Both the position numbers and the translations under genes were made by a program. Below, in pieces: positions 21,082 through 55,221 of a stretch of 64,000 nt of DNA (its first letter is position 1; the number at the start of each line of letters is the position of its first letter). Source of the DNA: Candidatus Harrisonbacteria bacterium (GTDB lineage Bacteria; Patescibacteriota; Minisyncoccia; UBA6257; 1-14-0-10-44-23); contig JAHFLF010000001.1 of assembly GCA_023255625.1 (NCBI GenBank), positions 30,255 to 94,254 on the forward strand, written 5' to 3'. The notes beneath the pieces are model-generated. The model saw only the letters and a list, made by a program, of their open reading frames with translations. It was not told the origin of the DNA and did no database searches.

Positions 21082-21123
21082 GTCTTTATACTACAACCTA
21101 CTCACTACAAACTACAACCTATC

Positions 21124-26959: not shown

Positions 26960-27102
26960 GGGCAGTTTATAGGTTATAGTTTATAGGTTATAGTCTGGAA
27001 AAACAAGATGAAAAAGTTGACCAAAATCCCGAAATCTCTTACAATTCTCCCATGTTTATTTTTACACTATCCACTATAACCTATCAACTATAAACTTCTC
27101 CC

Positions 27103-29622: not shown

Positions 29623-29633
29623 GCACCAGTTGG

Positions 29634-29680
29634 TTAGTTGGTTAGCTAGTTAGTTGGTTGTTGGTTAGCCGACAGTTGGT
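29634..29680 (-). repeat. 5'-UTR repeat CTAACCAAC..CCAACTAACTAGCTAACCAAC directly upstream of the ATPase 27778..29622 start
   Basis: The same 21-mer core occurs in sense orientation directly upstream of recR (60428..60470) and at 46750..46790. Confidence 0.5.
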
Positions 29681-33950: not shown

Positions 33951-35110
33951 ATCAAAAACCGGCTGTTTTAATTCTTGATGTAGGCACAACAACAATTAAA
34001 GCATTTGTGTTTGATCAGGAACTCCATGTCCTTGGCCAAGCAAAACTAGAGCCAAAAAAAACTCGCCCGCAATCTGGCTTCGTTGAACAAGATCCGCTGG
34101 AGTTGCTCGCGCTAGCAAAGCAGGTGCTCGTACAAGCGGTGGCTATAGCAAAAATTGCGCCCGCCGAAATTTTATCTTTCGGAATCACAAATCAGAGGGA
34201 AACTGTTATCGCTTGGGATAGAGCCACCGGCGAGCCACTTTACCCGGCAATAGTCTGGGAAGATACGCGCACAGCAAAAACATGCGCTGCGTTAGAGCGC
34301 TTTACCGGCTTCGTCCGCGAAAAAACCGGCCTGCCAATTGATCCATATTTTTCTGCTACTAAAGTCAGCTGGTTATTACAACAACCGCCAGTTATCCATG
34401 CGCTGCGGGAGAAAACTCTTTGCGTCGGGACAGTTGACAGTTGGATTCTTTGGAACCTTTCAGCCGAGCATCTCCATGCCACTGATTACACCAACGCGAG
34501 CCGGACGCTTCTTTTCAATATAAAAACATTAAGCTGGGACAGCGAATTATTAAAACTCTTTGCTGTCCCGGCCGAAATTCTGCCGAAAGCGCAGCCGTCC
34601 GCCGCGAACTTCGGTTCGCTGAATACTGATATTGTCGGTGCACTAATTCCGATTCGTGCGCTTTGCGGAGATCAGCAGGCCAGCCAGTACGCCGCTGGCG
34701 TAAATGTCGGTGCAACAAAAGTAACACTAGGTACGGGAATTTTTATTTCTCAAATTATCGGAAGTAATTTCCAAATTCGACCTCCTTTTTTTACGACACT
34801 TGTGCCAAATGAAAAACAGCCCTGGTACGCGCTTGAGCAGAAAATAAATGAGTCTGGCTCGAGAATTCAGGAACTACTTGATAAAAAAATGGATCTGGCT
34901 CCGCTGCTCAAAGAGTTTTCAGAGGATGTAAATATATATTTGAAAAAACTACCGCGCCAACCGGCCGAACTTGTAATTGACGGCGGTATAACTCAAGCGC
35001 CGGCGCTCGCGGATATTCTCGCGGAGACAACTGGCTTGCCGGTGCGCCGCCAAATAATTCCAGATGGCACACCGCTTGGTATGGCAAAATTATTGTTTAG
35101 CCGCGATTAA
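33947..35110 (+). CDS. glpK: glycerol kinase-like FGGY carbohydrate kinase (truncated C-terminal domain)
   Basis: LILDVGTTTIKAFVFD...ITNQRETVIAWDRATGEPLYPAIVWEDTRT...DPYFSATKVSWLL are GlpK motifs. 387 aa against the typical ~500 aa. Confidence 0.65.
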   Translation: MNQKPAVLILDVGTTTIKAFVFDQELHVLGQAKLEPKKTRPQSGFVEQDPLELLALAKQVLVQAVAIAKIAPAEILSFGITNQRETVIAWDRATGEPLYPAIVWEDTRTAKTCAALERFTGFVREKTGLPIDPYFSATKVSWLLQQPPVIHALREKTLCVGTVDSWILWNLSAEHLHATDYTNASRTLLFNIKTLSWDSELLKLFAVPAEILPKAQPSAANFGSLNTDIVGALIPIRALCGDQQASQYAAGVNVGATKVTLGTGIFISQIIGSNFQIRPPFFTTLVPNEKQPWYALEQKINESGSRIQELLDKKMDLAPLLKEFSEDVNIYLKKLPRQPAELVIDGGITQAPALADILAETTGLPVRRQIIPDGTPLGMAKLLFSRD

Positions 35111-36810
35111 ACAACCTCGGCGTTGTAGCAAGTTTCGCAATAGACTATGTCGGGCCGGTCGGGCGCAAAACTAGTAATAAACTTATTGGCGCAGCCCGGC
35201 TTCATGCACTGGCGATCATAAAATATGGCTTTGTTGCGTTGAATAATTCGGGCGGAGTGGCGGCAATCTATGCATGTCCGTGGAAGAGGAATTTCGAACT
35301 GGCGCAAGAATTGTAACTCCGGACCAATAATGCGATACGCTTTTTTACACTCTGCACACTGAATGATCTGCTTCACGATATCATCCTGCGCATTACCAAT
35401 AGAATCCGGAAGCTGCGCAGCAGTCATCGTCGTTTGATACTCTGTTGGATTTGGTTCTTGCCACCGCGCACCAAATGCGAGCGCCTCCTCTTTAGAAAGC
35501 TTAAAATGCTCGGGGCTGATACTTTGATCGTACGCAAATGGAGAAAATTCCGGCGGAAAAAATTCACCGTATGCGTATGTCCTACCCTGTTTATCTACAT
35601 GCGGCATCGTATTCATCTGCTCAATAATTTTTTTGCGCAACGCAAAATAATCTTCTTTAGAGTATTGCTTATTCAAAATACAGTACTGCTTGTTTCTGAC
35701 TGACACGCAGCCAAATAAATTCATGGCAGTCCCGCCGCAGTGCATGCAATATTCAAAGTCTGAACCTCCGTCCCAACACTCCCAGCAGAACTTGAGGCGG
35801 GTTGCTCCCCATCCAGAGGTTGCAGATTCATAGACAAGCTCCGTGGCGCCAGTAACCGTAACATCCATAGAATCAGTAGTCGGCAGTGCCTGCGAATACT
35901 GGATATAGCGCAGATCCTGGCCCTCGGCAATCACATACCCATGGTGTACATTTTTTGAGAAGCTCACAAAATCGCCGCTGACATTTGCGTTCAACATTCC
36001 TTGCAAATTCTTGATAGGAAATGTAAGCCAAAATTCTTTTGCTTTTTGCCACGCTACTGTAAGCCCGCTCCAGGTATCAAGTTTGAGCGCTTCAAGCCGT
36101 TTAAAGTACTCCTCCTTAGTAAGCTGCTCATTATTAAAGCAATAACTCTTATTGCGCAAATTCACGCAGCCGAAACAGTCGGTGCAACCGCGACACTCCC
36201 GAGAAAACCAAATTGAAGCTGACTCGGCACAGAGCGAAGAGAAAAATGCCTTATTGCAAGAAAGCACCCAGAAACAGCCATAACAACTTTCTGACTTTTT
36301 CAGATTAGAATTATCATACGAATTTTTGCATTCATCAATCCCGTTGCCGTATCCGCAGTCTTCGTCATGATTTGCGTTGAAGACTAAATAACAATTTTTA
36401 AGCCCGTCGGCGTTACCAGAGTAATCGCTGTTAACCATATTGATAGCGGCCGAGCGATAACGCGGCACCTTTTGATTGAGCTCCTGCAGTTGCGCCAAAA
36501 ACGGCCGACTTGGATCAAAATCCTGGCCATAACTCATCGGGTCCCATCCTGTCTGCCCAAACCACTCCTTATCATCATAAATAGGAAACCCGCAATCAGC
36601 TGGATAGATACCAACCGTGTCTCTGCCGGTAGTCGCCTCCTTAATCCTAAACAACTTTCGCTCATTGCGAAACAACATTCGCCTGCGCATCCGGCACTGC
36701 GCACACCATGTAGGCGGCGGCACATCAATCTTTTTGTAAAAATCAAAATCCGCCTCTTCGATCACAAAATCTTTTTTACAGTTTTGGCAGTATCTAGTTT
36801 CCGGTCTCAT
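35107..36810 (-). CDS. Cys-rich multi-zinc-ribbon family protein (567 aa)
   Basis: ORF track; family motifs (..IVYCETCYNAEVV). Confidence 0.85.
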   Translation of the reverse strand: MRPETRYCQNCKKDFVIEEADFDFYKKIDVPPPTWCAQCRMRRRMLFRNERKLFRIKEATTGRDTVGIYPADCGFPIYDDKEWFGQTGWDPMSYGQDFDPSRPFLAQLQELNQKVPRYRSAAINMVNSDYSGNADGLKNCYLVFNANHDEDCGYGNGIDECKNSYDNSNLKKSESCYGCFWVLSCNKAFFSSLCAESASIWFSRECRGCTDCFGCVNLRNKSYCFNNEQLTKEEYFKRLEALKLDTWSGLTVAWQKAKEFWLTFPIKNLQGMLNANVSGDFVSFSKNVHHGYVIAEGQDLRYIQYSQALPTTDSMDVTVTGATELVYESATSGWGATRLKFCWECWDGGSDFEYCMHCGGTAMNLFGCVSVRNKQYCILNKQYSKEDYFALRKKIIEQMNTMPHVDKQGRTYAYGEFFPPEFSPFAYDQSISPEHFKLSKEEALAFGARWQEPNPTEYQTTMTAAQLPDSIGNAQDDIVKQIIQCAECKKAYRIIGPELQFLRQFEIPLPRTCIDCRHSARIIQRNKAIFYDRQCMKPGCANKFITSFAPDRPDIVYCETCYNAEVV

Positions 36811-36845
36811 ATTCTCTATTTACCTATTCGTACGAATAAGACAAT
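36811..36845 (-). promoter_or_regulatory. Second copy of the 35-bp spacer with the ATTCGTACGAAT palindrome
   Basis: Identical to 19350..19384. Confidence 0.5.
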
Positions 36846-36847
36846 GG

Positions 36848-38608
36848 CTATGAAACTTCTTGCTGATAACACTGCTCGCAATACACAATTTCGGGCCGGT
36901 CAGGGGCAAAAGGAGTCTCAAATACTGAAGGACAGGGCTTCTCGCCATGAAAATGCATTACGGCGTTTTGATACCCTACCTTCTGAGACTGCCGATTGCA
37001 ATCGCACACACAAGACCAGAGCTGGTGAGGATTCTTCGTAGCAATTCGTGCCTTATGGCGACAATAAAAACATTGTCGAGGAAGCGGAATTTTTAAGCGA
37101 CGATAGAATTTTAGCTCCGCCGGGACAACACGATAGTTTCTTTTACAATCAATGCAGGCAAAAATTTCCTTTGTGATTTCATCTTGTACATCCGCGATAC
37201 CGTCGGGAATCTCCTCGAGTGGCATCGTCTCTTTACCAACCGTCATCTGCAGCTGATCCTGCCACCGCAAACCCTTTGCATCAACCTCATTTCCTGAAAG
37301 TGGAAAATAATCCTGAGCAACACTTTCATTATACGCAAAATACGAAAGTTCTGATGGCAGAAATTCGCCGAAAGCATACGCGATCCCATTTTTATCCAGA
37401 TATGGATTCGCCTGCATATCTTCCTTTATTTTTGTAACTAACGATTCGTATTCCTCTTTAGAATACTGCTTATTCAAAATACAATACTGGGCCTTTTTGA
37501 GCCCAACGCAGCCAAATAAGTCTTTCGAGGAATGACATGCGTCCACGTAAGCAACATTTTCATTGCGCCACGAAAAAATCGCGAACATACTGCGATAGGA
37601 AAGGTCGGGCGTTACGCCTTCGTAGCACTGGTCAAGTTTTCCTCCAACGCTTAGATCATAGGAACCCCGGGGCGTATCTGCATTTTCTACCCATTTGCAA
37701 TCCTCTCCGCGTTGAACGTTAAAACACTGCTTTGAATTTTTACAATTCATTAAGCTATCGCCGGTACAATTCACGCAGTTTCTCTGCGTAGCAAATCTTC
37801 GAGGCGTGCTCAAAAAAATATCTTTAAATTCCTTTTTTGCTTTTTCTACACCGGTGTAGGTATCAAGTCGATAGTCTCGAAGGATCTTTTCGTACTCTTC
37901 TTTTGTATATTGTTTATTTTTAAAGCAATACCGTTTGTGACGTAGACCAACAGACATAAAACAATCAGCGCAGTCTCGACAGTCATAGCAAAAAGAACAA
38001 TCCGATAAGGAAACAGAATAATACACGTACCGACACTGAAAGCACTTTTCGGTGGCAACTGTTTCATATGTAAACTGACAATCCCCCATGCTATTTACTG
38101 CATCAACAATATCTTTGCCATTGATAAGATACGAGCTATAGAGGCACTCTTCGAGTTCCCAGGCGATAAAAACCATATAGCAGTTTTTACTGGAGGCAAA
38201 ATCCTGAGTATATTCACAGTTTACGCTTGTGATGCCGTCATCGTTGGCGGTAGTCCACATCGGCACGCGACGCTGGAGTTCCGCAAACTGCTCTAAGAAT
38301 GTTCGAGTAGGATCATACGTCTGCTCGTAGCTTTTTGGATCCCACTTGTCACTCCACCAACATTTAGGACAATACACAGTATTGATAGGTCCGTTTGGCG
38401 CGTACAGCGAAATAACCGACTTGTGGCACAGAGCACATGTTCGAGAATATAACATCGTATCGTTGCGCCACGAAAGACGGCGCTGCTTGCGACACTCCGG
38501 GCAAAACGTCGGCGGAGGTACCTCTAACTTTTTGTAGAATGCCAAATCTTCGTCTTCGACAATAAACTCTTTTTTGCAATTCTGACATGCGCGGATTTCC
38601 GAATTCAT
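36848..38608 (-). CDS. Cys-rich multi-zinc-ribbon family protein (586 aa)
   Basis: ORF track. The start abuts the stop of the RhuM-Fic/Doc gene. Confidence 0.85.
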   Translation of the reverse strand: MNSEIRACQNCKKEFIVEDEDLAFYKKLEVPPPTFCPECRKQRRLSWRNDTMLYSRTCALCHKSVISLYAPNGPINTVYCPKCWWSDKWDPKSYEQTYDPTRTFLEQFAELQRRVPMWTTANDDGITSVNCEYTQDFASSKNCYMVFIAWELEECLYSSYLINGKDIVDAVNSMGDCQFTYETVATEKCFQCRYVYYSVSLSDCSFCYDCRDCADCFMSVGLRHKRYCFKNKQYTKEEYEKILRDYRLDTYTGVEKAKKEFKDIFLSTPRRFATQRNCVNCTGDSLMNCKNSKQCFNVQRGEDCKWVENADTPRGSYDLSVGGKLDQCYEGVTPDLSYRSMFAIFSWRNENVAYVDACHSSKDLFGCVGLKKAQYCILNKQYSKEEYESLVTKIKEDMQANPYLDKNGIAYAFGEFLPSELSYFAYNESVAQDYFPLSGNEVDAKGLRWQDQLQMTVGKETMPLEEIPDGIADVQDEITKEIFACIDCKRNYRVVPAELKFYRRLKIPLPRQCFYCRHKARIATKNPHQLWSCVCDCNRQSQKVGYQNAVMHFHGEKPCPSVFETPFAPDRPEIVYCEQCYQQEVS

Positions 38609-38609: not shown

Positions 38610-39611
38610 CTAGTTGGCGAGCAGATTAAGAATGAGTCTAATCATCACCTCTTTTTCTTTCGGATTACTCTCGGCGATAAGTAAAGCAAGCGCGACGAGC
38701 GCGTTGTCATTGATTTTCTTTTCGCCGCTCTTTTTAAGCAATTTATTATTGCGGCTCAAAAACAAGATAAACAAAAATGAGCCGATGCGTTTATTGCCAT
38801 CAGAGAAGGAATGATCTTTGATCACAAAGTAGAGTAAATGCGCAGCTTTTTCTTCAATACTTGGATACAGATGAATACCGCCGAAAGACTGGTAAAGTCC
38901 GGCGATAATACCCTGAAATGATTTATCGCGCTCACTGCCAAACAGGTCGCTCGCCTCGCCTTTGTTCATCAGAGCAATTTTTAGCTCGTCAATCGCACTA
39001 CGGGCATCTTCATAAAGTAGTAAACGACCGCCAGCTTTCTTAAGTATCGGGGTTTCAAGTCGCTGCTCATCGTATTTCTGCAACAACAACCATGCGTTAG
39101 CGTAACCGCTAATCACTTCAAGCAAACCGCTTGTCTCATCACTTGAAAGCATTTTCTGTTTTGCCCGTTCCAGCAAATCCAGCGTCTTTCTAAATTCAAT
39201 AAGCTGTTTGCCTTGCAGCTGTTTGAGACGTTGCTCATTTACCGTCACACCTTTCAAGATATGATCCTTGAGAACATTCGTTGCCCATCGACGAAACTCA
39301 ATGCCGCGTCGGGTATTTGTTCGGTAACCAACTGCGAGGATGATATCAAGATTATAAAAACTGACTGGTTTATCAGAATTTGGAATGTGCATTTTTTGCA
39401 CATTGCTTTTTGTATCAACCTCACCATCCTTGAGAATGTTGCGAATATGTTTGGTTACCACTGTCCGGTCAATACCGAATAAATCAGTAATTTGACCCTG
39501 GGTCAGCCACACCGTCTCGCCACTAAAACGCACTTCAACCGAAGCGTTACGCTTTTTATCTTGATAGATAATTATCTCACCTCTATCCTGCTGCTTTTTC
39601 GTCTTTGCCAT
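38610..39611 (-). CDS. RhuM-family virulence protein with C-terminal Fic/Doc domain
   Basis: N-terminal EIIIYQDKKRNASVEVRFSGETVWLTQGQITDLFG is RhuM-like. The C-terminal HSFSDGNKRIGSF is the Doc/Fic HxFx(D/E)GNKR motif. Confidence 0.7.
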   Translation of the reverse strand: MAKTKKQQDRGEIIIYQDKKRNASVEVRFSGETVWLTQGQITDLFGIDRTVVTKHIRNILKDGEVDTKSNVQKMHIPNSDKPVSFYNLDIILAVGYRTNTRRGIEFRRWATNVLKDHILKGVTVNEQRLKQLQGKQLIEFRKTLDLLERAKQKMLSSDETSGLLEVISGYANAWLLLQKYDEQRLETPILKKAGGRLLLYEDARSAIDELKIALMNKGEASDLFGSERDKSFQGIIAGLYQSFGGIHLYPSIEEKAAHLLYFVIKDHSFSDGNKRIGSFLFILFLSRNNKLLKKSGEKKINDNALVALALLIAESNPKEKEVMIRLILNLLAN

Positions 39612-39650
39612 GTATCTATACTACAACCTACCACCTACTCCCTACAACCT

Positions 39651-41177
39651 CTATATAAGCGGCTCCGGATTATCTATCGCGGGCTGGACGAGCTTGCTGC
39701 CGTCCGGATTTTTACCGCCGGTGATGATGGCCTTTTCTTGTGCAGAACGAATAATTGTTGACTCCTCTTCCTGAATCAATTTTTTAGCATCGCCGACGGG
39801 GATGGTGTACTTGCGGCGGCTCGCCTCAATAATCCGGTCTTTGTAACTCGGATGATTAGGCGGCATTATTTTGAGCGTGGCCGCTGAAAATGCATCGTAG
39901 GTCTCCCCGTCAATCGTCATCTTAATGTAAAATTCTCGCTTACCAAGGTTAATCATGTCTTTAACCTTAAACATCGGAGCAAACTCATCCTCCAAAATAA
40001 CGGCGTCGGCACCACCCACGCGGAAACTGACAATCGTACCGGTGTTACCAAGCACGGCAGCAAGAATCTTAGGCAGCAGCTGGCCCATGTACTGGTGCGC
40101 GATAATCAGGTTGATGCCGTATTTACGCGCCTCGGATAAAATGTTTTCAAAGGTCTCGGTAACAATGTTTTGAAACTCGTCAATGTAGAGATAAAAATCA
40201 AGGCGGTCTTTTTCGGGCATACGCGCGCGGGCCATACCCGCCTGCTTAATCTTGGTGAGAAACATTGCGCCAAAGAATGAAGAATTTTCTTCGCCCAGCC
40301 GACCCTTAGATAAATTGATGAGCACAATCTTCTGCTCGTTCATTAACTTTTCCAAATCAATCTTGTTGGTCTTCTGGCCAAAAATGTTGCGTAGGAGCGG
40401 GTCAGACAAAAACTGGCCGAGCTTATTAACCAGCGGGATAATCGCGTCGGTATCAAACTTTTCGCTCCAATCCGCAAATTCAATAGCCCAGAAGCGTTTG
40501 ACCATGTCGTCCTCAATGTACTCAATCACTTTTTGGCGGTAGTTACGGTCGGTCAGCATTGAGATCATACCGCGCATGGTGGCGTGCGGATAATCTAAAA
40601 GTGCCAGCGTGGTAAATCGGAATACGTGCTCAAGTCGCGGCGTCCAGTTTGCGCCAAACTGCTTTTCTAAGACCTCAATAAGTCCTTGGGTCAGCTGGTG
40701 CTTAAAGTCCATGTCAATGTTGGCGAGCGGGTTAAACGACGACGGGAATTGTGCGTCGCCCGGGTCAATAAGACACACATCCTCAATACGCCGTTCAGGA
40801 ATGGCATGCAAAATTTCTTCAACCACATCGCCGTGCGGATCCATCAGACAAAATCCCTTATTAAATTCAATATCCTGCCGGATGAGCAGCTCCAATAATT
40901 TTGTTTTACCGACGCCGCTTTTACCAATGACATACATGTGCCGCTGGCGGTCGGCGCGCTTAATACCAAACACAAATTTTTTCTCTTCAAGCGCGGCAAC
41001 ATAGTTGGTGCGGCCAAAAAAATTAATATCTTTGGGGTCAACTTTGCCGAGCATCGGTAGGTCTGGCGGAGGCGGCGCGTACTTAACAATCTGCACACGC
41101 GAAGAAACCGGCGGAAGAGGTTGCGCCGGAGCAGCAGATTGAGTTGGTTGTGGTTTTATGTTGTCAGCCATAAACAA
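39651..41177 (-). CDS. FtsK/HerA/TraD-VirD4-like P-loop ATPase, paralog of the 27778..29622 gene (508 aa)
   Basis: RQRHMYVIGKSGVGKTKLL, MDPHGD, FYLYIDEFQNI, LIIAHQYMGQL. The motif order and spacing match the other ATPase. Confidence 0.65.
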   Translation of the reverse strand: MFMADNIKPQPTQSAAPAQPLPPVSSRVQIVKYAPPPPDLPMLGKVDPKDINFFGRTNYVAALEEKKFVFGIKRADRQRHMYVIGKSGVGKTKLLELLIRQDIEFNKGFCLMDPHGDVVEEILHAIPERRIEDVCLIDPGDAQFPSSFNPLANIDMDFKHQLTQGLIEVLEKQFGANWTPRLEHVFRFTTLALLDYPHATMRGMISMLTDRNYRQKVIEYIEDDMVKRFWAIEFADWSEKFDTDAIIPLVNKLGQFLSDPLLRNIFGQKTNKIDLEKLMNEQKIVLINLSKGRLGEENSSFFGAMFLTKIKQAGMARARMPEKDRLDFYLYIDEFQNIVTETFENILSEARKYGINLIIAHQYMGQLLPKILAAVLGNTGTIVSFRVGGADAVILEDEFAPMFKVKDMINLGKREFYIKMTIDGETYDAFSAATLKIMPPNHPSYKDRIIEASRRKYTIPVGDAKKLIQEEESTIIRSAQEKAIITGGKNPDGSKLVQPAIDNPEPLI

Positions 41178-41280
41178 TAATCACTAACATGCTAATACGG
41201 ACAAATATGCGAATAGGAACTGCTTGTTTTCATTAGTATATTAGTATTGATTCGCGTGTTCGTGAATACTGCTAGAATTC
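41178..41280 (-). promoter_or_regulatory. Conserved ~100-nt leader/promoter region upstream of ATPase 39651..41177
   Basis: Homologous to 42061..42132 (shared tagcagtattcacgaacaYgcgaat ... catatttgt ... gttagYgattaYtgt before the ATG). Confidence 0.45.
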
Positions 41281-42060
41281 TTTGAGCTCCTTTAGAAAAT
41301 CTCGAAAGGCAAACAAGGCGCGTTCGGCCTGGTGCGTGGTGAGCGCGAACCCGGGCGTGTGCGCCAACTCGTTACGCAGCCGGTGCGCATCAAAAACTTT
41401 GTCGATCAATTTGCTGCCAGCCCAGCGCGCATTTTGCAGCCGCTCGGCCATACCCTCGCCGGCCACACCGCGCTGTTTAAGCACCATATCTACCAGCGCG
41501 TCGGCCTCCATCACCGCCCAGCGCAGATTTTCAACCGTGCCTGTGTTCGCCCGATGCACAATATTGGCCCAGTGCTTGAGAGTCGCTGGATTTCCCTGTG
41601 GTTGCGGCGTGTGCACAGTTGGAGCGGCGTGTGCGTGCGCCGGAGACGCCCCGTGGACAGCGCCATGATCAGCATGCGAATGTGGTTTAAGTCGAAAAAG
41701 TTTCATGTTTTGCTTATAGGGCTGCACCTTGATTGCCGCAAACACAAACATAAAAACCAAAAATATATCCAAGATGACAAAAATCGGCGTGATGTTATTA
41801 GTCCAAATTGTTACAAAAACAGACCATCCCTGGCTAAAAAACACAGTACCACCGAAGGTATCGAAAAGATGCTGCCGACTACCCTCGATGAAGAAAGAAA
41901 GCAAAAGATAAGCGAAGAATAAAATCCCGACTCCGGTTAAAACCCACTGCTCCTGCTGCAGCAGTCCTTCATGAAAGTGATGTCCTTTGTGTACTCCCAT
42001 AACAGTAATCGCTAATATTTTAATTTGAGCTAATCTACGAAGTACAGTAATCGCTAACAC
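41272..42060 (-). CDS. hypothetical membrane protein with His-rich linker and C-terminal helical domain
   Basis: ORF track with 2-3 predicted TM segments. Its upstream leader is homologous to the leader of ATPase 39651..41177. Confidence 0.5.
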   Translation of the reverse strand: MLAITVLRRLAQIKILAITVMGVHKGHHFHEGLLQQEQWVLTGVGILFFAYLLLSFFIEGSRQHLFDTFGGTVFFSQGWSVFVTIWTNNITPIFVILDIFLVFMFVFAAIKVQPYKQNMKLFRLKPHSHADHGAVHGASPAHAHAAPTVHTPQPQGNPATLKHWANIVHRANTGTVENLRWAVMEADALVDMVLKQRGVAGEGMAERLQNARWAGSKLIDKVFDAHRLRNELAHTPGFALTTHQAERALFAFRDFLKELKEF

Positions 42061-42132
42061 TCGAATGCAAACAAATATGCCAATGAATGTCTATTCGAAT
42101 ATTAGTCTTTATTCGCATGTTCGTGAATACTG
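42061..42132 (-). promoter_or_regulatory. Second copy of the conserved leader, upstream of membrane protein 41272..42060
   Basis: See 41178..41280. Confidence 0.45.
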
Positions 42133-43578
42133 CTACTTAAACTTATCCAGCACAGACTCATCGGCATAAATCGGCAGACCGGCCGGAGCACCCATCTTGC
42201 GGGATTCAACCCGTTGCGTGAGCGGCCCGGTAACAACGAGCGTGGTCGGTGGATGAAAAAGTGTCGCCAAAATTTCACTGGTCAAAATCGTGTTGGCCGA
42301 ATTCCACCAGTTAAATGTGTGCGAGGCGATAAATTGACCGGAAAATTCATGAATGCCCGGTTCACGCTCGCGCCACAAGTGTAGCATTCGATTCTTGCGA
42401 GCACGACGGCGAGTTCGCTTAAACACATAAGGCGGATCAAACCAGCCGGGCTTGGTGTTCATGCCGTCGTTAAAGACCATCGCATTTAAGTCGGCTGCAT
42501 TGTATTGGTTAAATGCACCCTTGATAGCCCGGCGAGGCACGCGGTCCGAGAAAAGATTTTTGGGTGAGATATAGAGCAGCTTAATGTTAGTGTCAAAAGC
42601 CGGTTTACTCAAATTCCGCTCAACCGCTTTCAATATATCTGTCTGTCCGGGTGATTTTTGCAGAAGCGATGTCTTTAAGGCCAGCGCTAGATCATCGCCG
42701 CTCGCGCCGTGCGCCGCCGAGCCCTTGGCAATTTTTGGCGTGCGCAGGTCATCAACAATATGCTGATACTGCTCGCCCCAACTTAAAAAAAGCGGAGAGA
42801 TAACATACTGCACGCCGATAAATTCCTCCGGTCGGATACTGGCCATTGCCTCCATAAATGCAGCCATCGGATCAACCTGATACTCCTCGGTGCTGCTCTC
42901 AAACTGCATATAAGTTTTAATCGGGAAGGCCGGATCTTTACTCAAGACAAAACCATTGGCATACAAATCCTTGCCCTGCAATTCCAGATCGAGGATGCTG
43001 TGTGGAACCCACTTTTCGGTATAATCCTCAACCACCGGCACGATCTCAACCTCCGGATAAGCGGCAAAAAGAGCCGCCTTGACAATCGGCACATACGGTT
43101 CATAAATTTGGGCGTAAAAATGAATCTCGCCGCCCAAACTAACAATCTCAAATGTAAACCAAATCGTCATTTCTCCGAGCAGATATTTTTCACCGAGATG
43201 CCCACGCCAGTTACCCATGCCGGCAATCGCATGAAAAAATTGATCCATACTGCGCGGGCTTCTGGTAATTTCCCGCGGCATCTTCAGTTCAAGCAGCTTA
43301 TATTTTAGCGAAGTCTCGAATGTCCGGTTCCGCCAATATATCCAAAGCGACCGCGTAATCGGCCAAGCAATCGCAAAAAAAATTATCGGCCAGTTTATCT
43401 TAAAAAATGGCGTGATCGCCGCGAAAACAGTTTGGACACCTTGAGCGATGGACATGGGGGAATTAGAAGGATTAGAAGTACTAGGGCAACTAGAAAGATT
43501 AGCGGGGCTAGTTAGTATTATACAACAATATTGGAGACAAAAAAATCTCCCCCTAACACATCTAGCATCCTCTAGCAT
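42133..43578 (-). CDS. hypothetical protein, N-terminally membrane-anchored. The true start is probably the Met at ~43455.
   Basis: The ORF-track start lies inside a 10-bp tandem repeat array. A TATAAT box and a hairpin lie just upstream of the internal Met (MSIAQGV...). Confidence 0.5.
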   Translation of the reverse strand: MLEDARCVRGRFFCLQYCCIILTSPANLSSCPSTSNPSNSPMSIAQGVQTVFAAITPFFKINWPIIFFAIAWPITRSLWIYWRNRTFETSLKYKLLELKMPREITRSPRSMDQFFHAIAGMGNWRGHLGEKYLLGEMTIWFTFEIVSLGGEIHFYAQIYEPYVPIVKAALFAAYPEVEIVPVVEDYTEKWVPHSILDLELQGKDLYANGFVLSKDPAFPIKTYMQFESSTEEYQVDPMAAFMEAMASIRPEEFIGVQYVISPLFLSWGEQYQHIVDDLRTPKIAKGSAAHGASGDDLALALKTSLLQKSPGQTDILKAVERNLSKPAFDTNIKLLYISPKNLFSDRVPRRAIKGAFNQYNAADLNAMVFNDGMNTKPGWFDPPYVFKRTRRRARKNRMLHLWREREPGIHEFSGQFIASHTFNWWNSANTILTSEILATLFHPPTTLVVTGPLTQRVESRKMGAPAGLPIYADESVLDKFK

Positions 43579-43645
43579 CCTCTAGTTGCCTCTAGCATCC
43601 TCTAGTTGCCTCTAGTTGCCTCTAGTTGCCTCTACTCCCGGCCTC
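43561..43645. repeat. Tandem array of 10-bp units (TCTAGCATCC / TCTAGTTGCC, about 8 units)
   Basis: Read from the sequence. It lies upstream of the probable true start and TATAAT box of gene 42133..43578. Confidence 0.7.
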
Positions 43646-43655
43646 TATCTCCCGG

Positions 43656-44708
43656 CTAAACCGCTGCGTATTCCCCGCTTGGCATCCGCTTAAAGTACTT
43701 CTTGTTCTGCAAATTAAAGAGAATCGTCGTCTCTTTAAATATCCGGTGTTTGAGAACTTTGGCAATCAAATCCTTTGGCTTGAGCGGGCCATCTTGTTTG
43801 AGAATGTGCAAAAGTATATCGCGAATCGTACCGGCTGGAAGTGCGTCGTGATCACGCAACGAGTAAATACCGCGGCCCACAAGCAGAAAGCGCTTGTCTT
43901 TAATGAGCTCGTTGTGAATCGTCTGCGTGTTGGTCTTTTTCTTCGGGCGCAGCGTGCGAATCTCGCCGGCAATATCGTCAAAGTGCAGCGGCTTAGTCGC
44001 CTTCTTTAAAATCAAATAAATCCAGTCACGGCTAACCTTTGGGCTGACCTCCGGCCACTCCGTCAAACCAAAATCACCGTACAGGTTGCTGCCGAACTTC
44101 TTGCTGATATTCAAATAGTGCCGGGCCACCTCGGTCTCCAGCTTGTGGAGCTGGCGCACCTCGTGGAAAAACTGCTCAAACTTTTTCTCGTTCAGAGTCT
44201 CATGTTTACGCGCGCGCAGATGCGCAACCAGCTCCTCCAAAAATTCAACGGCTTTTTGCTGATGGCTCTCGGAAAGATGCCAGTGGCTAGAAAGCTCCTC
44301 GTCATCTCGGTGATAAAGCACCTCACCGGAAATCTCTAAAAGAAAACGAACCTGATTGGCAAAATTAACCGGCAGATCCTTGCCGCCATCAGCAAACTGT
44401 TTAATATCAGAAAGCAGATGATCCTCGCGGCGCACGCCACCTGTTTTTGAAAGTTCGGCTTTTGCAGCAGCAACCAGGGCGGCCAAATCACTCTTACTGG
44501 CACGCTTACGAACTTCGGTAATCGCCGAGGCCTCAATCTGGCGAATGCGCTCGCGGGTAACATTAAAAGACTTGCCGAGTTCAGCAAGTGTCTGCTCCTC
44601 GCCGGTGTCCAGTCCATAGCGCTTGGTCAAAACCTTGCGCTGGCGCGCGTCCAGTCCGGAAAAAATTTGCTCAATAATTTGTGCGGTTGTTGGAGTTATC
44701 TGCGGCAT
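43656..44708 (-). CDS. sigma-70 region-4 HTH protein fused to a C-terminal HARE-HTH-like domain
   Basis: LDARQRKVLTKRYGLDTGEEQTLAELGKSFNVTRERIRQIEASAI is sigma70_r4. The C-terminal LHFDDIAGEI...GRGIYSL resembles the HARE-HTH of the RNAP delta subunit. Confidence 0.6.
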   Translation of the reverse strand: MPQITPTTAQIIEQIFSGLDARQRKVLTKRYGLDTGEEQTLAELGKSFNVTRERIRQIEASAITEVRKRASKSDLAALVAAAKAELSKTGGVRREDHLLSDIKQFADGGKDLPVNFANQVRFLLEISGEVLYHRDDEELSSHWHLSESHQQKAVEFLEELVAHLRARKHETLNEKKFEQFFHEVRQLHKLETEVARHYLNISKKFGSNLYGDFGLTEWPEVSPKVSRDWIYLILKKATKPLHFDDIAGEIRTLRPKKKTNTQTIHNELIKDKRFLLVGRGIYSLRDHDALPAGTIRDILLHILKQDGPLKPKDLIAKVLKHRIFKETTILFNLQNKKYFKRMPSGEYAAV

Positions 44709-44796
44709 GAGAAATTAAAATTTGATATTGTGTTATTGCTACTAAGTTATCATGATTATTGAATTCGGTCAACCGGGCAGTAGAAATGTGAATTTT

Positions 44797-44860
44797 ACCT
44801 TTCCGCGCGTTTCAGGTTTTCGGGCCGGGCTCACCCTTCGGGATGGCCCGAAAACCTGAA
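44797..44860. repeat. Long hairpin element (22-bp perfect stem gcgcgtttcaggttttcgggcc / ggcccgaaaacctgaaacgcgc) at the edge of high-GC island 1
   Basis: The loop gggctcacccttcgggat is the reverse complement of the 8050..8125 loop, with one mismatch. Confidence 0.65.
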
Positions 44861-45001
44861 ACGCGCGCAACCTTCTTCATGACTTACTATATAAAATATC
44901 AACCCCCGCGCTCGAGTGCGTCGATACGCGGGGGGACCGCGATTGTGTGTCTGTGGGTTGAGGTCCCGCACGAGGACACCTCCTTCCGCCGGGTTGACCG
45001 G

Positions 45002-45697
45002 CTACTTGGGCTGCTCGTCATCGGTCGCCGGGACAGACACTGCCAGCGTGCCGAGCTCGATGTGGTTGTGGACCTTGAGGAGTTCTTCGAATGTCATCTC
45101 CTCTTCGGGCCCGCCTTCTTCAGGTGTCATTCCGAAGATGATGGTCCACGGCCGCATGATCGGCAGGTGCCGGAGAATCGTCCGACATCCGTGGCAAGGC
45201 GGGAGCGTCTTCGACTCCACCTGGCTCACATCATCGATTTGCGGTTCTGCCGCAATGCCGAGAGCGACCGCGAGGTCGTACCTGGCACGGATAGCACTGC
45301 CGACTGCCATCGGCTCACCGCAAGCCTTCGGGGCGGTGGGTCCGGGCAACGGCTTGACGTTGAACCCGGTCCAGTACTTGTACGCCTTCTCCTTCTCGGG
45401 GTGGCCCTCTGGAAGGCTCCATCTCCAGCCGCTGAAGGCGTACACGACAATCCCGACTTGGTACTTCCGATGCGAGATGCCGTCCTCTCTCGCCTCACGT
45501 CCTCGCCGCTTGAATTCGGACTTGACCGCGCGCCAACGCGCGATGTGTTCTTCCCTTCTCGGAAAGACAAGGCCCGAACCGGCGTCAGCAACTGCAGCTT
45601 CGCTCATCTCGTCCTCCCCTAAGTCCTTGCCGCCAAAGTCTGGCACGCGAACACCGCGCACCGCCCGAAGTGTACAAAATCGCACTTCTTGGGTCAA
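45002..45697 (-). CDS. hypothetical protein in a high-GC island (possible zinc-dependent deaminase-like HxE...PCxxC)
   Basis: GC3-rich codons in this frame only. Contains EGHPEKE ... PPCHGCRTIL. Driven by a perfect TTGACA-N18-TATAAT promoter. Confidence 0.45.
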   Translation of the reverse strand: MTQEVRFCTLRAVRGVRVPDFGGKDLGEDEMSEAAVADAGSGLVFPRREEHIARWRAVKSEFKRRGREAREDGISHRKYQVGIVVYAFSGWRWSLPEGHPEKEKAYKYWTGFNVKPLPGPTAPKACGEPMAVGSAIRARYDLAVALGIAAEPQIDDVSQVESKTLPPCHGCRTILRHLPIMRPWTIIFGMTPEEGGPEEEMTFEELLKVHNHIELGTLAVSVPATDDEQPK

Positions 45698-45702
45698 TGT
45701 AT

Positions 45703-45732
45703 ATTATAGCACACTTTATGCTATTTTGTCAA
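45703..45732 (-). promoter_or_regulatory. Consensus sigma70-type promoter TTGACA-N18-TATAAT driving the high-GC ORF 45002..45697 (leaderless or very short leader)
   Basis: On the minus strand, ttgacaaaatagcataaagtgtgctataat ends ~6 nt before the ATG. Confidence 0.55.
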
Positions 45733-45806
45733 ATGACTGCAAAAAGCCGCGCGCATATTGCAAAAAATCGACAGAAATGTAGACTTTACTATGGAACAAT
45801 AATCTC

Positions 45807-46682
45807 ATGCTCACGCCGCAAAAACGCTGGCCAACCTTTGCCGGATTTTTAATCCGGACTATGCATTTTGTTTTAACGATCTGGCGAAAGTGGCGTATTC
45901 TAACTCGTCCCAATTCCCAAACTAGATACCGCGATATCGTCGGCGAGGCAGGAGGAGAAAATTCAATTTTCCACGACGAGCTTCTTCTGGAAGCATTAAC
46001 TCGCGCCGCTTCGTCTCCGGATACGATCCATATAATTAATAAAATACGCGAAATTCTGACAAATACGACAAACCAACTAGCCCGCACAAATTTACCGCTG
46101 ACCATGCTAGTCATTGGTATCGGCTCCGGTAATATGATTCGGATGTTAGCTCGGGAATTCCCGGGCATTTTTATTACCGCCACTGATATCGCCCCTGAAC
46201 CAACGCAAAAATTAAAACATAATCCGGGCGGGTTGAATGTTCTTGTGAATCCGGAAACCACAACTCAAAAATTACAAGCAAAATCATTTTCCATGATCGT
46301 GCTGCCAGCCGGCATTGCCCGCTATCTGAATGATGCCGAGCGATCCGATCTAGTAACCGAGATTCAACGCTTACTGCGACCGGATGGAATTTTTCTTCTA
46401 TCAGAGTTTGCCCATGTGTCGGAATTTTCTAATATGGTTCAAGTTCTTGAAAAAAATAACTTCATCTGCAAAATCTCCAAAAAACATATTCATGGCGTCT
46501 TTCGAAATTCGCTCTATTACCTAACCTGGCATCTTTACTCTCGCTTTTCACTCTGGCGTTTGACAACATGCTGGCTGGCCAAAAAAGAAAAGGTTGATTC
46601 GTTAGATATTTTGATTCGTACTGCCGGTTACCGTTCGGGTAACTTTTACAGTGTAGCAGCGACATATCCGGCTAAGGCCTGA
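45807..46682 (+). CDS. class I SAM-dependent methyltransferase
   Basis: Motif I VIGIGSGNM and post-I LRPDGIFLLSEF. Confidence 0.6.
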   Translation: MLTPQKRWPTFAGFLIRTMHFVLTIWRKWRILTRPNSQTRYRDIVGEAGGENSIFHDELLLEALTRAASSPDTIHIINKIREILTNTTNQLARTNLPLTMLVIGIGSGNMIRMLAREFPGIFITATDIAPEPTQKLKHNPGGLNVLVNPETTTQKLQAKSFSMIVLPAGIARYLNDAERSDLVTEIQRLLRPDGIFLLSEFAHVSEFSNMVQVLEKNNFICKISKKHIHGVFRNSLYYLTWHLYSRFSLWRLTTCWLAKKEKVDSLDILIRTAGYRSGNFYSVAATYPAKA

Positions 46683-46749: not shown

Positions 46750-46790
46750 CTTACCAACTAACCAACAACTAGCTAACCACCTAACTCTTC
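46750..46790 (+). repeat. CCAACTAACCAACAACTAGCTAACCACCTAAC copy overlapping the 3' end of secF
   Basis: Read from the sequence. Confidence 0.4.
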
Positions 46791-47701: not shown

Positions 47702-47805
47702 AAAGAGTAATTTTTAATTTCTAATTTTCAATTTTCAAACAATGATTTAATTTCGAAATTTCTAAATTGAAAATTGTTTAGAAATTAGAAATTGAGAATT
47801 AGAAA
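47702..47805. repeat. AT-rich palindromic intergenic repeat (secD-secF spacer)
   Basis: aatttctaattttcaattttcaaacaat ... attgtttagaaattagaaattgagaattagaaatt; homologous to 54545..54642. Confidence 0.65.
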
Positions 47806-49092
47806 TTATTTTGCAACTTTTTTCTCGTGCACAAAAATCTCCAGCAATGTGCGCGTAACGGTAATCGCTGTAAACATTGAAACGATGACTCCGAGAAGCA
47901 GCGAAAGTGCGAAGCCACGAATAAAACTCGAAGTGAAGCTGTACAGCACAAGCGAGGTAATCATCGTGGTTATGTTGCTGTCGCGGATGCTTGGCCAGGC
48001 GCGGCGGAATCCTTCGATAATCGCCGTGGTCTTGTTAACCCCCTTCTTCATCTCTTCACGGCTGCGTTCAAAAATTAGAATGTTCGCGTCAACCGCCATG
48101 CCGATAGACAAAATAATTCCGGCGATACCGGCCAAGGTCATCGTGATGCCAAACAATTTAAAGATGCCGAGTAGAAGCAGTGTGTAGATGACTAGCGCGA
48201 TCGCAGCAAAGAAACCCAGCCAATGGTAATAGATGATCATGAAAAGAATCACAATCAAGGCGCCAATCAGACCGGCAAAAAGCGTGCGCTGCAAACTGTC
48301 TGCGCCGAGCGTTGCGCCAATCGTCTGTTGGCTTAGGAGCTTGAGCGGAGCGGCTAGGGCGCCATCCTTAAAACGATTGACTAAAGTGCGCGCCTCCTCC
48401 AATGTGAACTGCCCCGTAATCTGTGCGCGGCCGCCGCTGATGCGCTCGTTCACTGTCGGCGCGGTTAAAAGTTCATTGTCCACAAAAACACCCAGCCGTT
48501 TACCGACATTGGCTGCGGTTAAATCCTCAAAAAGTTTCGCGCCCTCGCTGTCAAACTCTAGAAAAATTTCCGGACGATTTGAAACACTGTTAAAATTTAA
48601 CGAGGCGCTCTTCACATAACGGCCGGTCAAGCTGGTCGGCACGAAAGCCGGCTGATCAGATTGTAATTCAATCTCCTTGCCATCTGCGGTAGTTGCTTTA
48701 ACCGGCTGCTTGGTCGTCCCCTCCTGTGAAAAAACTAAAAACGGCGTCTGGCCAATTTGCGCGATGGCCTCGCTGGTATCTTTAATACCGGCGATATCCA
48801 CAATCAAACGATATGAATCCCCCTGCTTGGCGGTCAATACCTGCGGCTCGCGTACGCCGCTAGAATTCACGCGCGCTTCAATGCGTCCGCGGATTCCGTC
48901 TAAAACCGACGCCCGATCTGAATCAACCACATTGCTCATGTCAATTTCATAGACCAGGTGGCTGCCACCGACTAAATCCAGGCCAAGCCGCCATGGCCGG
49001 GTACTACCCCAAAAATCAGGGTGAATAAAAAAAGCCGAAAGCACGGAGCCGACTACCACGAGACCGATTAGTAAGAGAGATCCTTTGCGCAT
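47806..49092 (-). CDS. secD: protein translocase subunit SecD
   Basis: 428 aa with SecD TM core LGATLGADSLQ...GIAGIILSIGMAVDANILIFERSREE. Confidence 0.8.
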   Translation of the reverse strand: MRKGSLLLIGLVVVGSVLSAFFIHPDFWGSTRPWRLGLDLVGGSHLVYEIDMSNVVDSDRASVLDGIRGRIEARVNSSGVREPQVLTAKQGDSYRLIVDIAGIKDTSEAIAQIGQTPFLVFSQEGTTKQPVKATTADGKEIELQSDQPAFVPTSLTGRYVKSASLNFNSVSNRPEIFLEFDSEGAKLFEDLTAANVGKRLGVFVDNELLTAPTVNERISGGRAQITGQFTLEEARTLVNRFKDGALAAPLKLLSQQTIGATLGADSLQRTLFAGLIGALIVILFMIIYYHWLGFFAAIALVIYTLLLLGIFKLFGITMTLAGIAGIILSIGMAVDANILIFERSREEMKKGVNKTTAIIEGFRRAWPSIRDSNITTMITSLVLYSFTSSFIRGFALSLLLGVIVSMFTAITVTRTLLEIFVHEKKVAK

Positions 49093-54544: not shown

Positions 54545-54642
54545 TTTTTAATTTCTAATTTTTAAACAATAATTTAATTTCTTAATTTCAAAATTCTAAA
54601 ATTGAAAATTGTTTAGAAATTGAAAATTTGAAATTAGAAATT
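54545..54642. repeat. AT-rich palindromic intergenic repeat (dnaK-grpE spacer), homolog of 47702..47805
   Basis: Shares ttgaaaattgtttagaaatt and the overall hairpin architecture. A half-copy lies at ~12540..12572. Confidence 0.65.
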
Positions 54643-55221
54643 TCATCTCGCCAGCTTCACCTTAGCCGCTCGAATAACTCTTCCATTACTACTATAACCG
54701 GGGACTAACTCTTCTAAAATCTTGCCGGAGAGTTTCTCGCGTTCCGGATCATCCGGAGGAAGCTCCACCTCCAGCATTGCCTCATGAAATTCCGGATTAA
54801 ACCGGTCGCCACGAGCTACTACAATCCGCTCGATGCCTTTCTTGCGTAAGACCTCCTGCAGCTGCCCACTGATCATGAGCATTCCTTTATATTCTTGACT
54901 CTCTTTATCAACCGCATTCATGCCCAGATTAAAACTGTCTAGAACCGGTAAAAGGTCTTTTGCGAAATCAATAGCCGCGTAGCCGGCAAATTGCTCAAGT
55001 CGCTTACTCTCTTCTTTTTTGTAATTAATAAAATCAGCTGCAGCCCGTTTCCAGGAATTTAAATACTCATCGCGCTGCTTCTCGCACTCGGCGAGTTTGC
55101 CCGCCCCTGAATTGGCGGGCAAGTCCGCCGACCCGGCGTCAGGTTTGTTTTTTCCGGTTTCGGCCGGGCCGGCCGAAACCGGCTGATTGTCATTTTGCTT
55201 CGCTTCGTCGCTCATACTCAT
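54643..55221 (-). CDS. grpE: nucleotide exchange factor GrpE
   Basis: 192 aa with DFINYKKE and LLPVLDSF GrpE motifs, upstream of dnaK in the same orientation. Confidence 0.8.
   Translation of the reverse strand: MSMSDEAKQNDNQPVSAGPAETGKNKPDAGSADLPANSGAGKLAECEKQRDEYLNSWKRAAADFINYKKEESKRLEQFAGYAAIDFAKDLLPVLDSFNLGMNAVDKESQEYKGMLMISGQLQEVLRKKGIERIVVARGDRFNPEFHEAMLEVELPPDDPEREKLSGKILEELVPGYSSNGRVIRAAKVKLAR

Follow-up and report, generated by a model that had tools for sequence, protein, structure and literature searches.

A lineage-wide gene module of Parcubacteria and its candidate split VirB4-like membrane motor

Results

The 64,000-nucleotide (nt) stretch of the Candidatus Harrisonbacteria genome analyzed here (positions 30,255 to 94,254 of contig JAHFLF010000001.1, assembly GCA_023255625.1; hereafter the window), on which PADLOC, Pfam, NCBIfam, Rfam, and Tandem Repeats Finder (TRF) were run, carries on its minus strand a string of seven co-directional open reading frames (ORFs), in the order and with the domain content claimed in a preliminary description made by a model from the sequence alone. 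Read along that strand, the string begins with a gene (43656–44708; 350 amino acids, aa) for a protein with a sigma70 region 4, a HARE-HTH domain, and a C-terminal winged-helix-like segment, which we call SigHARE. It continues with a DUF8128 protein (42133–43455; 440 aa), a small membrane protein (41272–42000; 242 aa), and a P-loop ATPase of the VirD4/TrwB type (39651–41171; 506 aa), and ends with a RhuM-Fic/Doc protein (38610–39611; 333 aa) and two Cys-rich paralogs (36848–38608 and 35107–36810; 586 and 567 aa). Beyond the Cys-rich genes, on the same strand, lies a second ATPase paralog (27778–29622), 43% identical to the first. We focus on the first four genes, which form a conserved core that may encode a split, VirB4-like membrane motor.

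The gene ends and gene order first described for this string held up, and three of its start codons did not. The start of the 481-aa ORF proposed for the DUF8128 gene falls within a tandem array; gene calling and conservation both place the start at ATG 43455. The small membrane protein gene starts at ATG 42000 rather than where the 262-aa ORF begins, and the ATPase gene at ATG 41171; an exact-sequence look-up of the ATPase version with a TTG start came back empty, and the ATG version is the sole form on record.

The first finding is that the core belongs to a widely conserved neighborhood. We fetched 80 loci with an alignment of 23 DUF8128 proteins from one-genome-per-species contigs, mapped the window proteins onto them, and counted neighbors with loci that had enough flank as denominators. 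Across these genomes the conserved order is SecD-SecF-SigHARE-DUF8128-small membrane protein-ATPase. SigHARE lies directly upstream of DUF8128 in 67 of 74 loci and SecF upstream in 51/61; the small membrane protein is found downstream of DUF8128 in 70/75 loci, and the ATPase within 4.5 kb on the same strand in 64 of 67. Conservation of gene order had been named in the preliminary description as a check on its proposed module, and the synteny of the four core genes across ~80 species genomes bears out that a real, conserved, and co-directional module exists. Against the window proteins, median identities are 74% for the ATPase (70 loci), 53% for SecD, 50% for SecF, 39% for both DUF8128 and SigHARE, and 32% for the small membrane protein, a profile that, to judge from the sequences, fits a core cellular machine and not a defense island. 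SigHARE, DUF8128, and the ATPase remain together at 24–30% identity, also where DUF8128 and ATPase are fused, and the SigHARE-DUF8128 adjacency persists where other neighbors differ (FtsH/MurJ, holB/YceG, or PGK). Two loci with 26–30% DUF8128 identity (L085 and L087) read holB-SigHARE-DUF8128-YceG, with SigHARE still directly upstream, and a third distant locus (L086) reads SigHARE-DUF8128-ATPase with gaps of just 3–10 nt, the ATPase directly after DUF8128 being there of the type of the second paralog of the window.

The second finding is that DUF8128 resembles the N-terminal domain of VirB4, the T4SS (type IV secretion system) ATPase. The DUF8128 protein, whose assignment to PF26449 comes from precomputed annotation, consists of an N-terminal hydrophobic helix, a cytoplasmic domain like that of the VirB4 N-terminus, and a conserved disordered tail (ESRKxGPPAGLPIY). 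It gave no informative sequence matches in Pfam or NCBIfam, and the window protein had no DUF8128 match in a local Pfam copy even at E ≤ 10. In its AlphaFold (AF2) model (pLDDT 78, pTM 0.76), a long N-terminal helix is followed by an alpha/beta domain. When this model was searched against the PDB with Foldseek, the top 14 matches, which were also the sole matches at E ≤ 0.01, were all TrwK/VirB4 of R388 (E = 3e-5 to 3e-3, probability 0.96–1.0; 13 chains at E ≤ 1e-3 and the 14th at E = 3.3e-3), the next being unrelated oxidases at E > 0.03. The model thus has the fold of the VirB4 N-terminal domain, and no sequence-family match goes with it: TIGR00929 reached E = 0.0023, with 16 bits vs a cutoff of 643, and there was no CagE_TrbE_VirB Pfam match.

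VirB4 is a single polypeptide; its counterpart in the window is two genes, and in other lineages these two genes are one. A profile search found an 895-aa protein (P0265), annotated as DUF8128 plus TrwB_AAD_bind plus DUF87, in which residues 19–345 align with DUF8128 (E = 2e-13) and residues 329–755 with the window ATPase (43% identity, E = 3e-135). It is encoded on three independent contigs, between FtsH and MurJ. When P0265 was searched against 1.84 billion cluster representatives and the best 150 matches were assessed, 61 of these covered both halves in a single stretch, with lengths of 700–2000 aa. DUF8128 and ATPase share one ORF in 63 of 80 metagenome loci fetched with an alignment of the fused proteins; SigHARE is upstream of 18/47 fused and 7/8 split loci in that set. 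The fused proteins are laid out as a membrane anchor, a ~350-residue domain like the VirB4 N-terminus, and a P-loop motor, as in VirB4, and both the DUF8128 tail and the ATPase N-terminus (PPPPDLP) align to their single linker. A transmembrane (TM) helix followed by basic residues stands at the N-terminus of 30/46 fused proteins, showing that the N-terminal membrane anchor is a trait of the family. Because of the fold match and the single polypeptide in other lineages, DUF8128 and the ATPase together are best read as a split, membrane-anchored VirB4-like motor. On six metagenome contigs (L116, L118, L119, L121, L122, and L149) the fused gene occurs in tandem double copies, which parallel the two ATPase paralogs of the window.

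These data also bear on whether the conserved order reflects any functional coupling, as unrelated core genes could be adjacent simply through the stable gene order of small genomes of the candidate phyla radiation (CPR). The housekeeping flanks (SecDF, the DnaK operon, and tRNA synthetases) would suit such an explanation, as would the 100–200 nt spacers, with possible promoter and terminator signals, between genes in the window. However, fusion in many lineages largely refutes it for DUF8128 and the ATPase, the gaps in L086 are no wider than 3–10 nt, and the adjacency of SigHARE and DUF8128 outlasts all other neighbors, so that we regard mere order without coupling as very unlikely.

The ATPase itself matches four Pfam families above their cutoffs: T4SS-DNA_transf (PF02534, 32.8 bits vs 20.1), TrwB_AAD_bind (PF10412, 29.4 vs 20.5), TraG-D_C (PF12696, 26.2 vs 22), and DUF87 (HerA). 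Its best NCBIfam match, far below cutoff, is a VirD4-like conjugal protein (CD1115), and its best PDB match in a profile search is TrwB (E = 3e-5), over the P-loop region only. The Walker A (GKSGVGKT) and Walker B (YLYIDEFQ) motifs are intact, and homologs number more than 8000 database proteins, typically at 75–80% identity. In the second paralog, the C-terminus adds a treble-clef zinc finger (PF23477) and an extended tail rich in Pro, Gln, Gly, and Arg. In its P-loop NTPase match and Walker motifs the ATPase is thus what a coupling protein should be, and it could be a detached one, serving together with DUF8128 a virB4/virB6/virB8 locus elsewhere in the genome. This would agree with its place in the VirD4/TraG/TraD families by Pfam and NCBIfam, and with the fact that coupling-protein genes often lie far from virB4 and that T4SS are widespread in CPR genomes. 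However, a TM scan detected no TM or hydrophobic segment in the ATPase, nor in 63/67 orthologs, so that the N-terminal TM domain that a coupling protein bears on the same polypeptide is missing, and no relaxase or virB4/virB6/virB8 domain, nor any other T4SS gene, was found among the scanned genes of the 64-kb window. Moreover, the ATPase is paired or fused with a domain like the VirB4 N-terminus, which canonical coupling proteins lack, its constant partner is a DNA-binding sigma4/HARE protein and not a T4SS component, and most genomes have about two such homologs (bioRxiv 10.1101/2025.01.22.634366). A detached coupling protein is, on this balance, decidedly unlikely.

The partner encoded upstream, SigHARE, has a clear Sigma70_r4 match (E = 5.5e-15) and a HARE-HTH match just under threshold (E = 2.9e-5, 24.8 bits vs a cutoff of 25.9). 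A profile built from 31 orthologs matches RpoD region 4 structures (E = 3e-18), and T-R-E-R-x-R-Q-I-E, the residues of sigma region 4.2 that contact the -35 hexamer in structures of sigma4 on -35 DNA, is invariant in all 31. Searches with Pfam, NCBIfam, and the PDB profile found region 4 only (residues 17–68) and no sigma region 2, and the NCBIfam sigma matches cover only the C-terminal ~70 positions of the models. Lacking region 2, SigHARE is not a sigma factor. Literature searches for a link between HARE-HTH and sigma returned nothing relevant.

The protein encoded between the two motor halves is the most variable of the core. Its length is 242 aa in the window, with a median of 176 aa in relatives, and it has one to three TM helices, usually a single one followed by basic residues and a cytoplasmic C-terminal domain of ~100 residues; the His-rich linker is limited to near relatives of the window. 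The motif R-N-x-L-x-H is near-invariant, with R77, N78, and H82 each kept in at least 90% of 46 aligned sequences, and agrees with the Rx4-6H motif of HEPN domains. HEPN_Swt1 matched 17/46 members, at best with E = 5e-4, and further weak matches are of HEPN type (DUF4145, HepT-like_2, and Cthe2314), all of them below threshold. We therefore consider, with moderate confidence, that the C-terminus is HEPN-like. Its distribution covers only the Parcubacteria clade of the first locus set; neither the fused loci nor the other split ones have it.

The next gene in the string has a different history. The RhuM-Fic/Doc protein matches RhuM (1.4e-18) and Fic (6.6e-10) in Pfam, carries the active-site motif HSFSDGNKR, which matches the Doc-type pattern HxFx(D/N)(A/G)NKR, and aligns over its full length (residues 10–332) with the PADLOC candidate PDC-S23 (PDLC04965; E = 3e-125), a single-gene RhuM-Fic/Doc family to which it can be assigned, the likeness concerning 38610–39611 only and not the module, and PDC systems being predictions. 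Homologs occur on phage and phage-satellite records, and no RhuM-Fic/Doc gene was found anywhere in the 80 related loci. At this junction L002, the closest of the relatives compared here, has a GTAG-rich spacer directly after the ATPase, and then a Cys-rich gene. In the window, the spacer upstream of RhuM-Fic/Doc is 79% identical to that directly preceding the Cys-rich paralog at 19390–21081, and 1 nt separates the RhuM-Fic/Doc stop codon from the Cys-rich gene that follows; the duplicated spacer and the 1-nt junction make the gene look inserted exactly between a spacer and the ATG of the Cys-rich gene. RhuM-Fic/Doc is a singleton insertion, an unrelated accessory gene, and its inclusion in the module by the preliminary description has to be given up; resolution into a separate known system is an outcome that the description had itself named as refuting.

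The same holds for the suggestion that the core is reminiscent of a defense or conflict island, in which the ATPase, the membrane proteins, and Fic/Doc would form one anti-phage or toxin system. Several features could be read in its favor: the RhuM-Fic match to PDC-S23, weak mad8 and HerA matches of the ATPase and a partial MzaA match of SigHARE, the HEPN-like motif of the small membrane protein, and, elsewhere in the window, an AbiEii gene and a foreign-looking cassette. In the PADLOC search that had been suggested as a test, however, the core received domain-level matches only (MzaA over the sigma4 part alone, at MzaA residues 601–677, mad8, and HerA), Fic being a separate single-gene candidate; these are single generic domains, with none of the MADS, Mza, or HerA-type partner proteins present. 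For the four core genes we found neither a full-length multi-component PADLOC match nor a patchy distribution. On the contrary, the core is near-universal and syntenic beside SecDF, DnaK/DnaJ/GrpE, and tRNA synthetases, with an ATPase far more conserved than SecD (74% vs 53%), and Fic is absent from every related locus. One defense system spanning the string is, in our judgment, extremely improbable.

Two regions of the window with features of this kind deserve description. An AbiEii-type nucleotidyltransferase toxin gene lies at 11410–12063 (Pfam 1.3e-18; PADLOC AbiEii 1.5e-15); no antitoxin partner was identified. Between SecF and SigHARE, 44709–46682 is a foreign-looking insert absent from the other loci. 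It carries a perfect TTGACA-18-TATAAT promoter with a TG (45732–45703, minus strand), a strong Shine-Dalgarno sequence (AGGGGAGGA) unlike neighboring genes, a GC-rich ORF of ~200 aa with no family match (45002–45606), a long hairpin (44801–44869), and, on the opposite strand, an S-adenosylmethionine (SAM) methyltransferase (45807–46682) with a weak PADLOC mad2 match.

The Cys-rich genes that close the string are members of a large family. Nine full copies and one partial copy, of ~570 aa and at 80–1069, 1257–6782, 17568–22827, 29739–31403, and 35107–38608, take up about a quarter of the window DNA. They are 32–46% identical to one another (42% for 36848–38608 vs 35107–36810), and we conclude that this reduced genome harbors a large and old family of paralogs. 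Zinc ribbons cap both ends of the proteins, which also contain two solenoid-like repeats of the Cys-ladder kind and, at the C-terminus, a motif of the type F-x-P-x-R-P-x-(I/V)-Y-C-E-x-C-Y (F-x-P-x-R-P-x-I-V-Y-C-E-x-C-Y in the two members of the string) that is similar to the treble-clef zinc finger ending the second ATPase paralog. They have no match in Pfam, NCBIfam, or PADLOC; a Foldseek search of the PDB with their AF2 model (pLDDT 76, pTM 0.81) gave no match, sequence and profile searches of the PDB were also empty, and literature searches found nothing relevant. In 33/55 loci the first 1.5 kb downstream of the ATPase contain the start of a Cys-rich gene, with runs of up to five. The link is statistical only, and these genes are loosely associated with the module.

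This association is the basis of the main rival to a nucleic-acid motor, namely that the split ATPase drives secretion or surface delivery of the Cys-rich proteins, recognized through a C-terminal signal as by coupling proteins or EssC. Besides the frequency and the runs just given, Cys-family genes also flank fused loci (L114, L135, L136, L138, and L141), the C-terminal motif is common to all paralogs and like the zinc finger of the second ATPase, and SecDF is the usual upstream neighbor. Yet neither a signal peptide nor a TM segment is present in the Cys-rich proteins, their zinc-ribbon build fits cytoplasmic proteins, and their age, at 32–46% identity, is not that of fast-diversifying effectors. 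Moreover, the ATPase is not followed by a Cys gene in 22 of the 55 loci, the distant loci L085–L087 lack such genes, and no channel component is encoded nearby. We therefore hold protein export to be unlikely.

Several features were noted around other members of this family. Three Cys-rich genes lie directly upstream of a ComEC split into two overlapping ORFs, a Competence/DUF4131 part (15829–17463) and a metallo-beta-lactamase part (14957–15856). A spacer of ~35 nt, ATTGTCTTATTCGTACGAATAGGTAAATAGAGAAT, with a perfect palindrome, ATTCGTACGAAT, is found on the minus strand at 19350–19389 and 36811–36847; the copies, each ahead of a Cys-rich gene, agree at 90% although the two encoded proteins share just 39% identity. 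Conservation of the spacer thus greatly exceeds that of the genes, and it may be an operator or regulatory site. Finally, an identical GC-rich element of ~110 nt occurs on the minus strand at ~2985–3125 and 4863–5000, at the 5′ end of 1257–2984 and 3195–4862. It folds into two hairpins (-62 kcal/mol, z = -4.5, with 0/200 shuffles reaching this stability), and Rfam gave no match for it. It is preceded by a remnant Cys-family start, MEAETKNCQNCKQ, and followed by ~25 identical first codons, although the two genes are 37% identical overall; it looks like a mobile or gene-converting insertion.

The spacers of the module were the other ground on which co-regulation had been proposed. The homologous leaders reported upstream of the ATPase and the small membrane protein exist: 41172–41271 and about 42030–42132 are ~75–80% identical from the preceding stop codon on, and share a 22-mer, CAGTATTCACGAACAYGCGAAT, that occurs twice in the window vs 0 times expected. 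They are two copies of an imperfect palindrome of ~100 nt with terminal inverted repeats (CAGTATTCACGAAC ... GTTAGTGATTAYTG), each running on the minus strand from stop codon to start codon. Copy 1 (41172–41271; CAGTATTCACGAAC ... GTTAGTGATTATTG) forms an end-to-end hairpin of -19.8 kcal/mol (z = -1.9), and copy 2 (42001–42132) has an extra repeat of the 3′ arm, TTAGCGATTACTGTT, directly before the ATG; both copies fold end to end, with modest z-scores of -1.5 to -1.9. In close relatives the element is found upstream of the ATPase only (L002) or not at all (L003). Since these are copies of a palindromic repeat with such a distribution, the step from shared leaders to shared regulation is a weak one. 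We also dropped the idea of a conserved regulatory RNA, as fold z-scores are only -1.5 to -2.3 and the element is missing in L003, and that of an inverted leader copy in L002, as a palindromic element aligns both ways. A scan for sigma-70 consensus sites inside the module was uninformative (25 sites vs 19.7 expected).

The motif TATACTACAACCTAC, noted at the ATPase-Fic/Doc junction and before the paralog at 19390–21081, is present there in exact copies (39617–39631 and 21087–21101) vs an expectation of 0.05. Both copies lie within heptamer (CTACAAC)n arrays, the first on the plus strand of the GTTGTAG-heptamer spacer of the minus strand (39612–39650), for which folding gave no RNA structure. 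A tandem array of 10-bp units was said to precede the module; the array is real (43561–43656; period 10/20 bp, TRF 69–111), but it occupies the SigHARE-DUF8128 spacer and not the front of the module. Its units read CTAGAGGCAA/CTAGAGGATG on the coding strand, it is followed by a small hairpin with a T-run (43533–43550) and a TATAAT box, and it is not conserved, a GC-rich hairpin taking its place in L002 and L003. Short-period arrays are common in this genome: 25/40 lie in intergenic DNA, which is 12.4% of the window. Their periods are 7, 8, or 10, and many carry TAG or TAA such that stops arise in all three frames of one or both strands (for example 10011–10086, 21090–21128, 26964–27096, 29628–29668, 39621–39650, 43561–43656, 46753–46785, 47708–47808, 54535–54644, and 60436–60465). 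They may represent a genome-wide spacer design or a mutational signature. Rfam at gathering thresholds detected only a tRNA-Lys in the window, and at an E-value threshold gave chance-level matches on the hairpin at 44801–44869 and none on the leaders or arrays. With other spacers duplicated and arrays widespread, we regard leaders and arrays as general spacer traits of this genome, which may affect expression and do not define the module. AT-rich palindromic spacers of ~100 nt, homologous to one another, are also seen upstream of SecF (47702–47805) and DnaK (54545–54642).

The window is core chromosome of a Parcubacteria-type CPR bacterium, as the names of its best relatives indicate (Liptonbacteria, Jorgensenbacteria, Harrisonbacteria, Kaiserbacteria, Paceibacterota, and Minisyncoccia, among others), and it matches a 62-kb ENA metagenome contig (ERZ27297344 k141_13615914). 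The flanks of the module are plainly housekeeping. Upstream of the module are SecD/SecF, the tRNA-Lys, and a GrpE-DnaK-DnaJ operon, with CysRS, DnaB, and RecR further out; LepA, AsnRS, NDK, MurB, MnmA, EF-P, and the split ComEC are encoded elsewhere. The DnaB helicase gene (57703–60417) harbors an intein, which includes a homing-endonuclease domain of the LAGLIDADG type.

Discussion

Coupling-protein homologs are near-universal in the CPR. A recent survey counted 5,713 VirD4-type homologs in 2,918 of 3,035 CPR genomes (~96%), found only 148 of them near virB4, and explicitly left exaptation open (bioRxiv 10.1101/2025.01.22.634366). In this report we describe one such ATPase within a conserved four-gene core, and we give an even chance to the interpretation that the core is a vertically inherited, lineage-wide, split VirB4-like membrane motor with a DNA-binding-type partner, probably engaged in nucleic-acid translocation. 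DUF8128 would provide an N-terminal membrane helix and a scaffold like the VirB4 N-terminus, and the ATPase a P-loop motor of the hexameric type, whose sequence places it closest to the VirD4/TrwB coupling proteins; a small membrane protein with a putative HEPN-like domain is, in this clade, encoded between the motor halves. Assembled at the cytoplasmic membrane, the motor would move or process nucleic acid, most likely DNA, at the expense of ATP. SigHARE could act as a DNA-binding adaptor, as a regulator of the operon, or as both; its role, the physical complex, the substrate, and the direction of transport are all inferred. FtsK, with its gamma domain, and the minimal DNA importers Ced/Ted of archaea would be comparable schemes.

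Nucleic acid is favored as the substrate for four reasons. First, the characterized members of the ATPase superfamily that are of this type are DNA pumps. Second, the constant partner of the motor, SigHARE, is a DNA-binding protein. Third, the ATPase paralog has a zinc finger and a Gly/Arg-rich tail. Fourth, the clade-specific small membrane protein appears to be HEPN-like.

Several observations weigh against this interpretation. The likeness of DUF8128 to VirB4 comes from a model, sequence and profile searches of the PDB with this protein having found nothing, and in the window protein itself the N-terminal helix falls below the standard hydropathy threshold. SigHARE is not found upstream of 29/47 fused loci. 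The HEPN assignment combines sub-threshold hidden Markov model (HMM) matches with a motif. The frequent Cys-rich neighbors (33/55) could point to protein cargo. Many third-party annotation (TPA) records are titled 'Saccharibacteria', and taxon labels are unreliable. Finally, the T4CP (type IV coupling protein) homolog of Southlakia, a Saccharibacterium, is reported not to have been essential for epibiotic growth (bioRxiv 10.1101/2025.01.22.634366), which fits a housekeeping role badly if that homolog is orthologous to the ATPase studied here.

A broader idea, which we put forward tentatively and think unlikely to hold, is that the orphan coupling-protein homologs of the CPR are the halves or fused forms of an unrecognized, T4SS-independent machine for nucleic-acid import or segregation. 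It would consist of a VirB4-like motor and a dedicated sigma4/HARE-HTH protein that reads DNA, to which Parcubacteria would add a HEPN nuclease tethered to the membrane. If true, it could be this machine that provides the missing motor by which organisms unable to make nucleotides acquire nucleotides or DNA. Literature searches returned no paper on DUF8128 and none describing the SigHARE-DUF8128-ATPase trio. Already, the orphan VirD4-type ATPases of the CPR gain a context, which consists of an obligatory DUF8128 partner, either fused or encoded just upstream, and a conserved DNA-binding partner. The CPR, or Patescibacteria, account for much of bacterial diversity and have hardly been cultured, and an annotation oddity in one of their genomes here becomes a testable hypothesis on a core membrane machine. 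In practical terms, the locus should not be counted as a defense island; only RhuM-Fic/Doc belongs in that category.

How does this candidate motor compare with known systems? With the VirD4/TrwB/TraD coupling proteins the window ATPase shares Pfam matches above cutoff and TrwB as its best PDB sequence match, and it is presumably among the 'T4CP homologs' of the published CPR survey. Unlike them, it carries no N-terminal TM domain itself, obligatorily comes as a pair or fusion with a domain like the VirB4 N-terminus, and has no relaxase or T4SS near it. The archaeal Ced/Ted systems are a precedent for ATPases of T4SS origin that, in a minimal set with small membrane partners and without a relaxase, import DNA rather than conjugate; however, the window offers only a far-sub-threshold CedD match (E = 1e-5, 24.5 bits vs a cutoff of 600) and no CedA-like protein was identified in it. 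FtsK/SpoIIIE are of the same ATPase superfamily and are likewise membrane-anchored motors in a housekeeping context that use a winged-helix DNA reader, the gamma domain of FtsK, whose place would here be taken by the separate protein SigHARE. The window proteins differ in having no FtsK_SpoIIIE family match and in dividing anchor, motor, and putative reader among separate genes.

The closest parallel is with VirB4, represented by TrwK of R388. The module of the window departs from it in matching VirB4 families by sequence no better than E = 0.002, in a motor half that scores as VirD4/TrwB-like, and in having no VirB3, VirB6, or VirB8 genes near it. It is also chromosomal, syntenic, and lineage-wide, and it is split into two halves that flank another gene. 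Nevertheless, the N-terminal half matches the fold of TrwK, the fused relatives share the layout of an N-terminal domain of ~400 residues ahead of a P-loop motor of the FtsK-HerA superfamily, and the N-terminal helix would tether the protein to the membrane in a manner analogous to VirB3 or to VirB3-VirB4 fusions.

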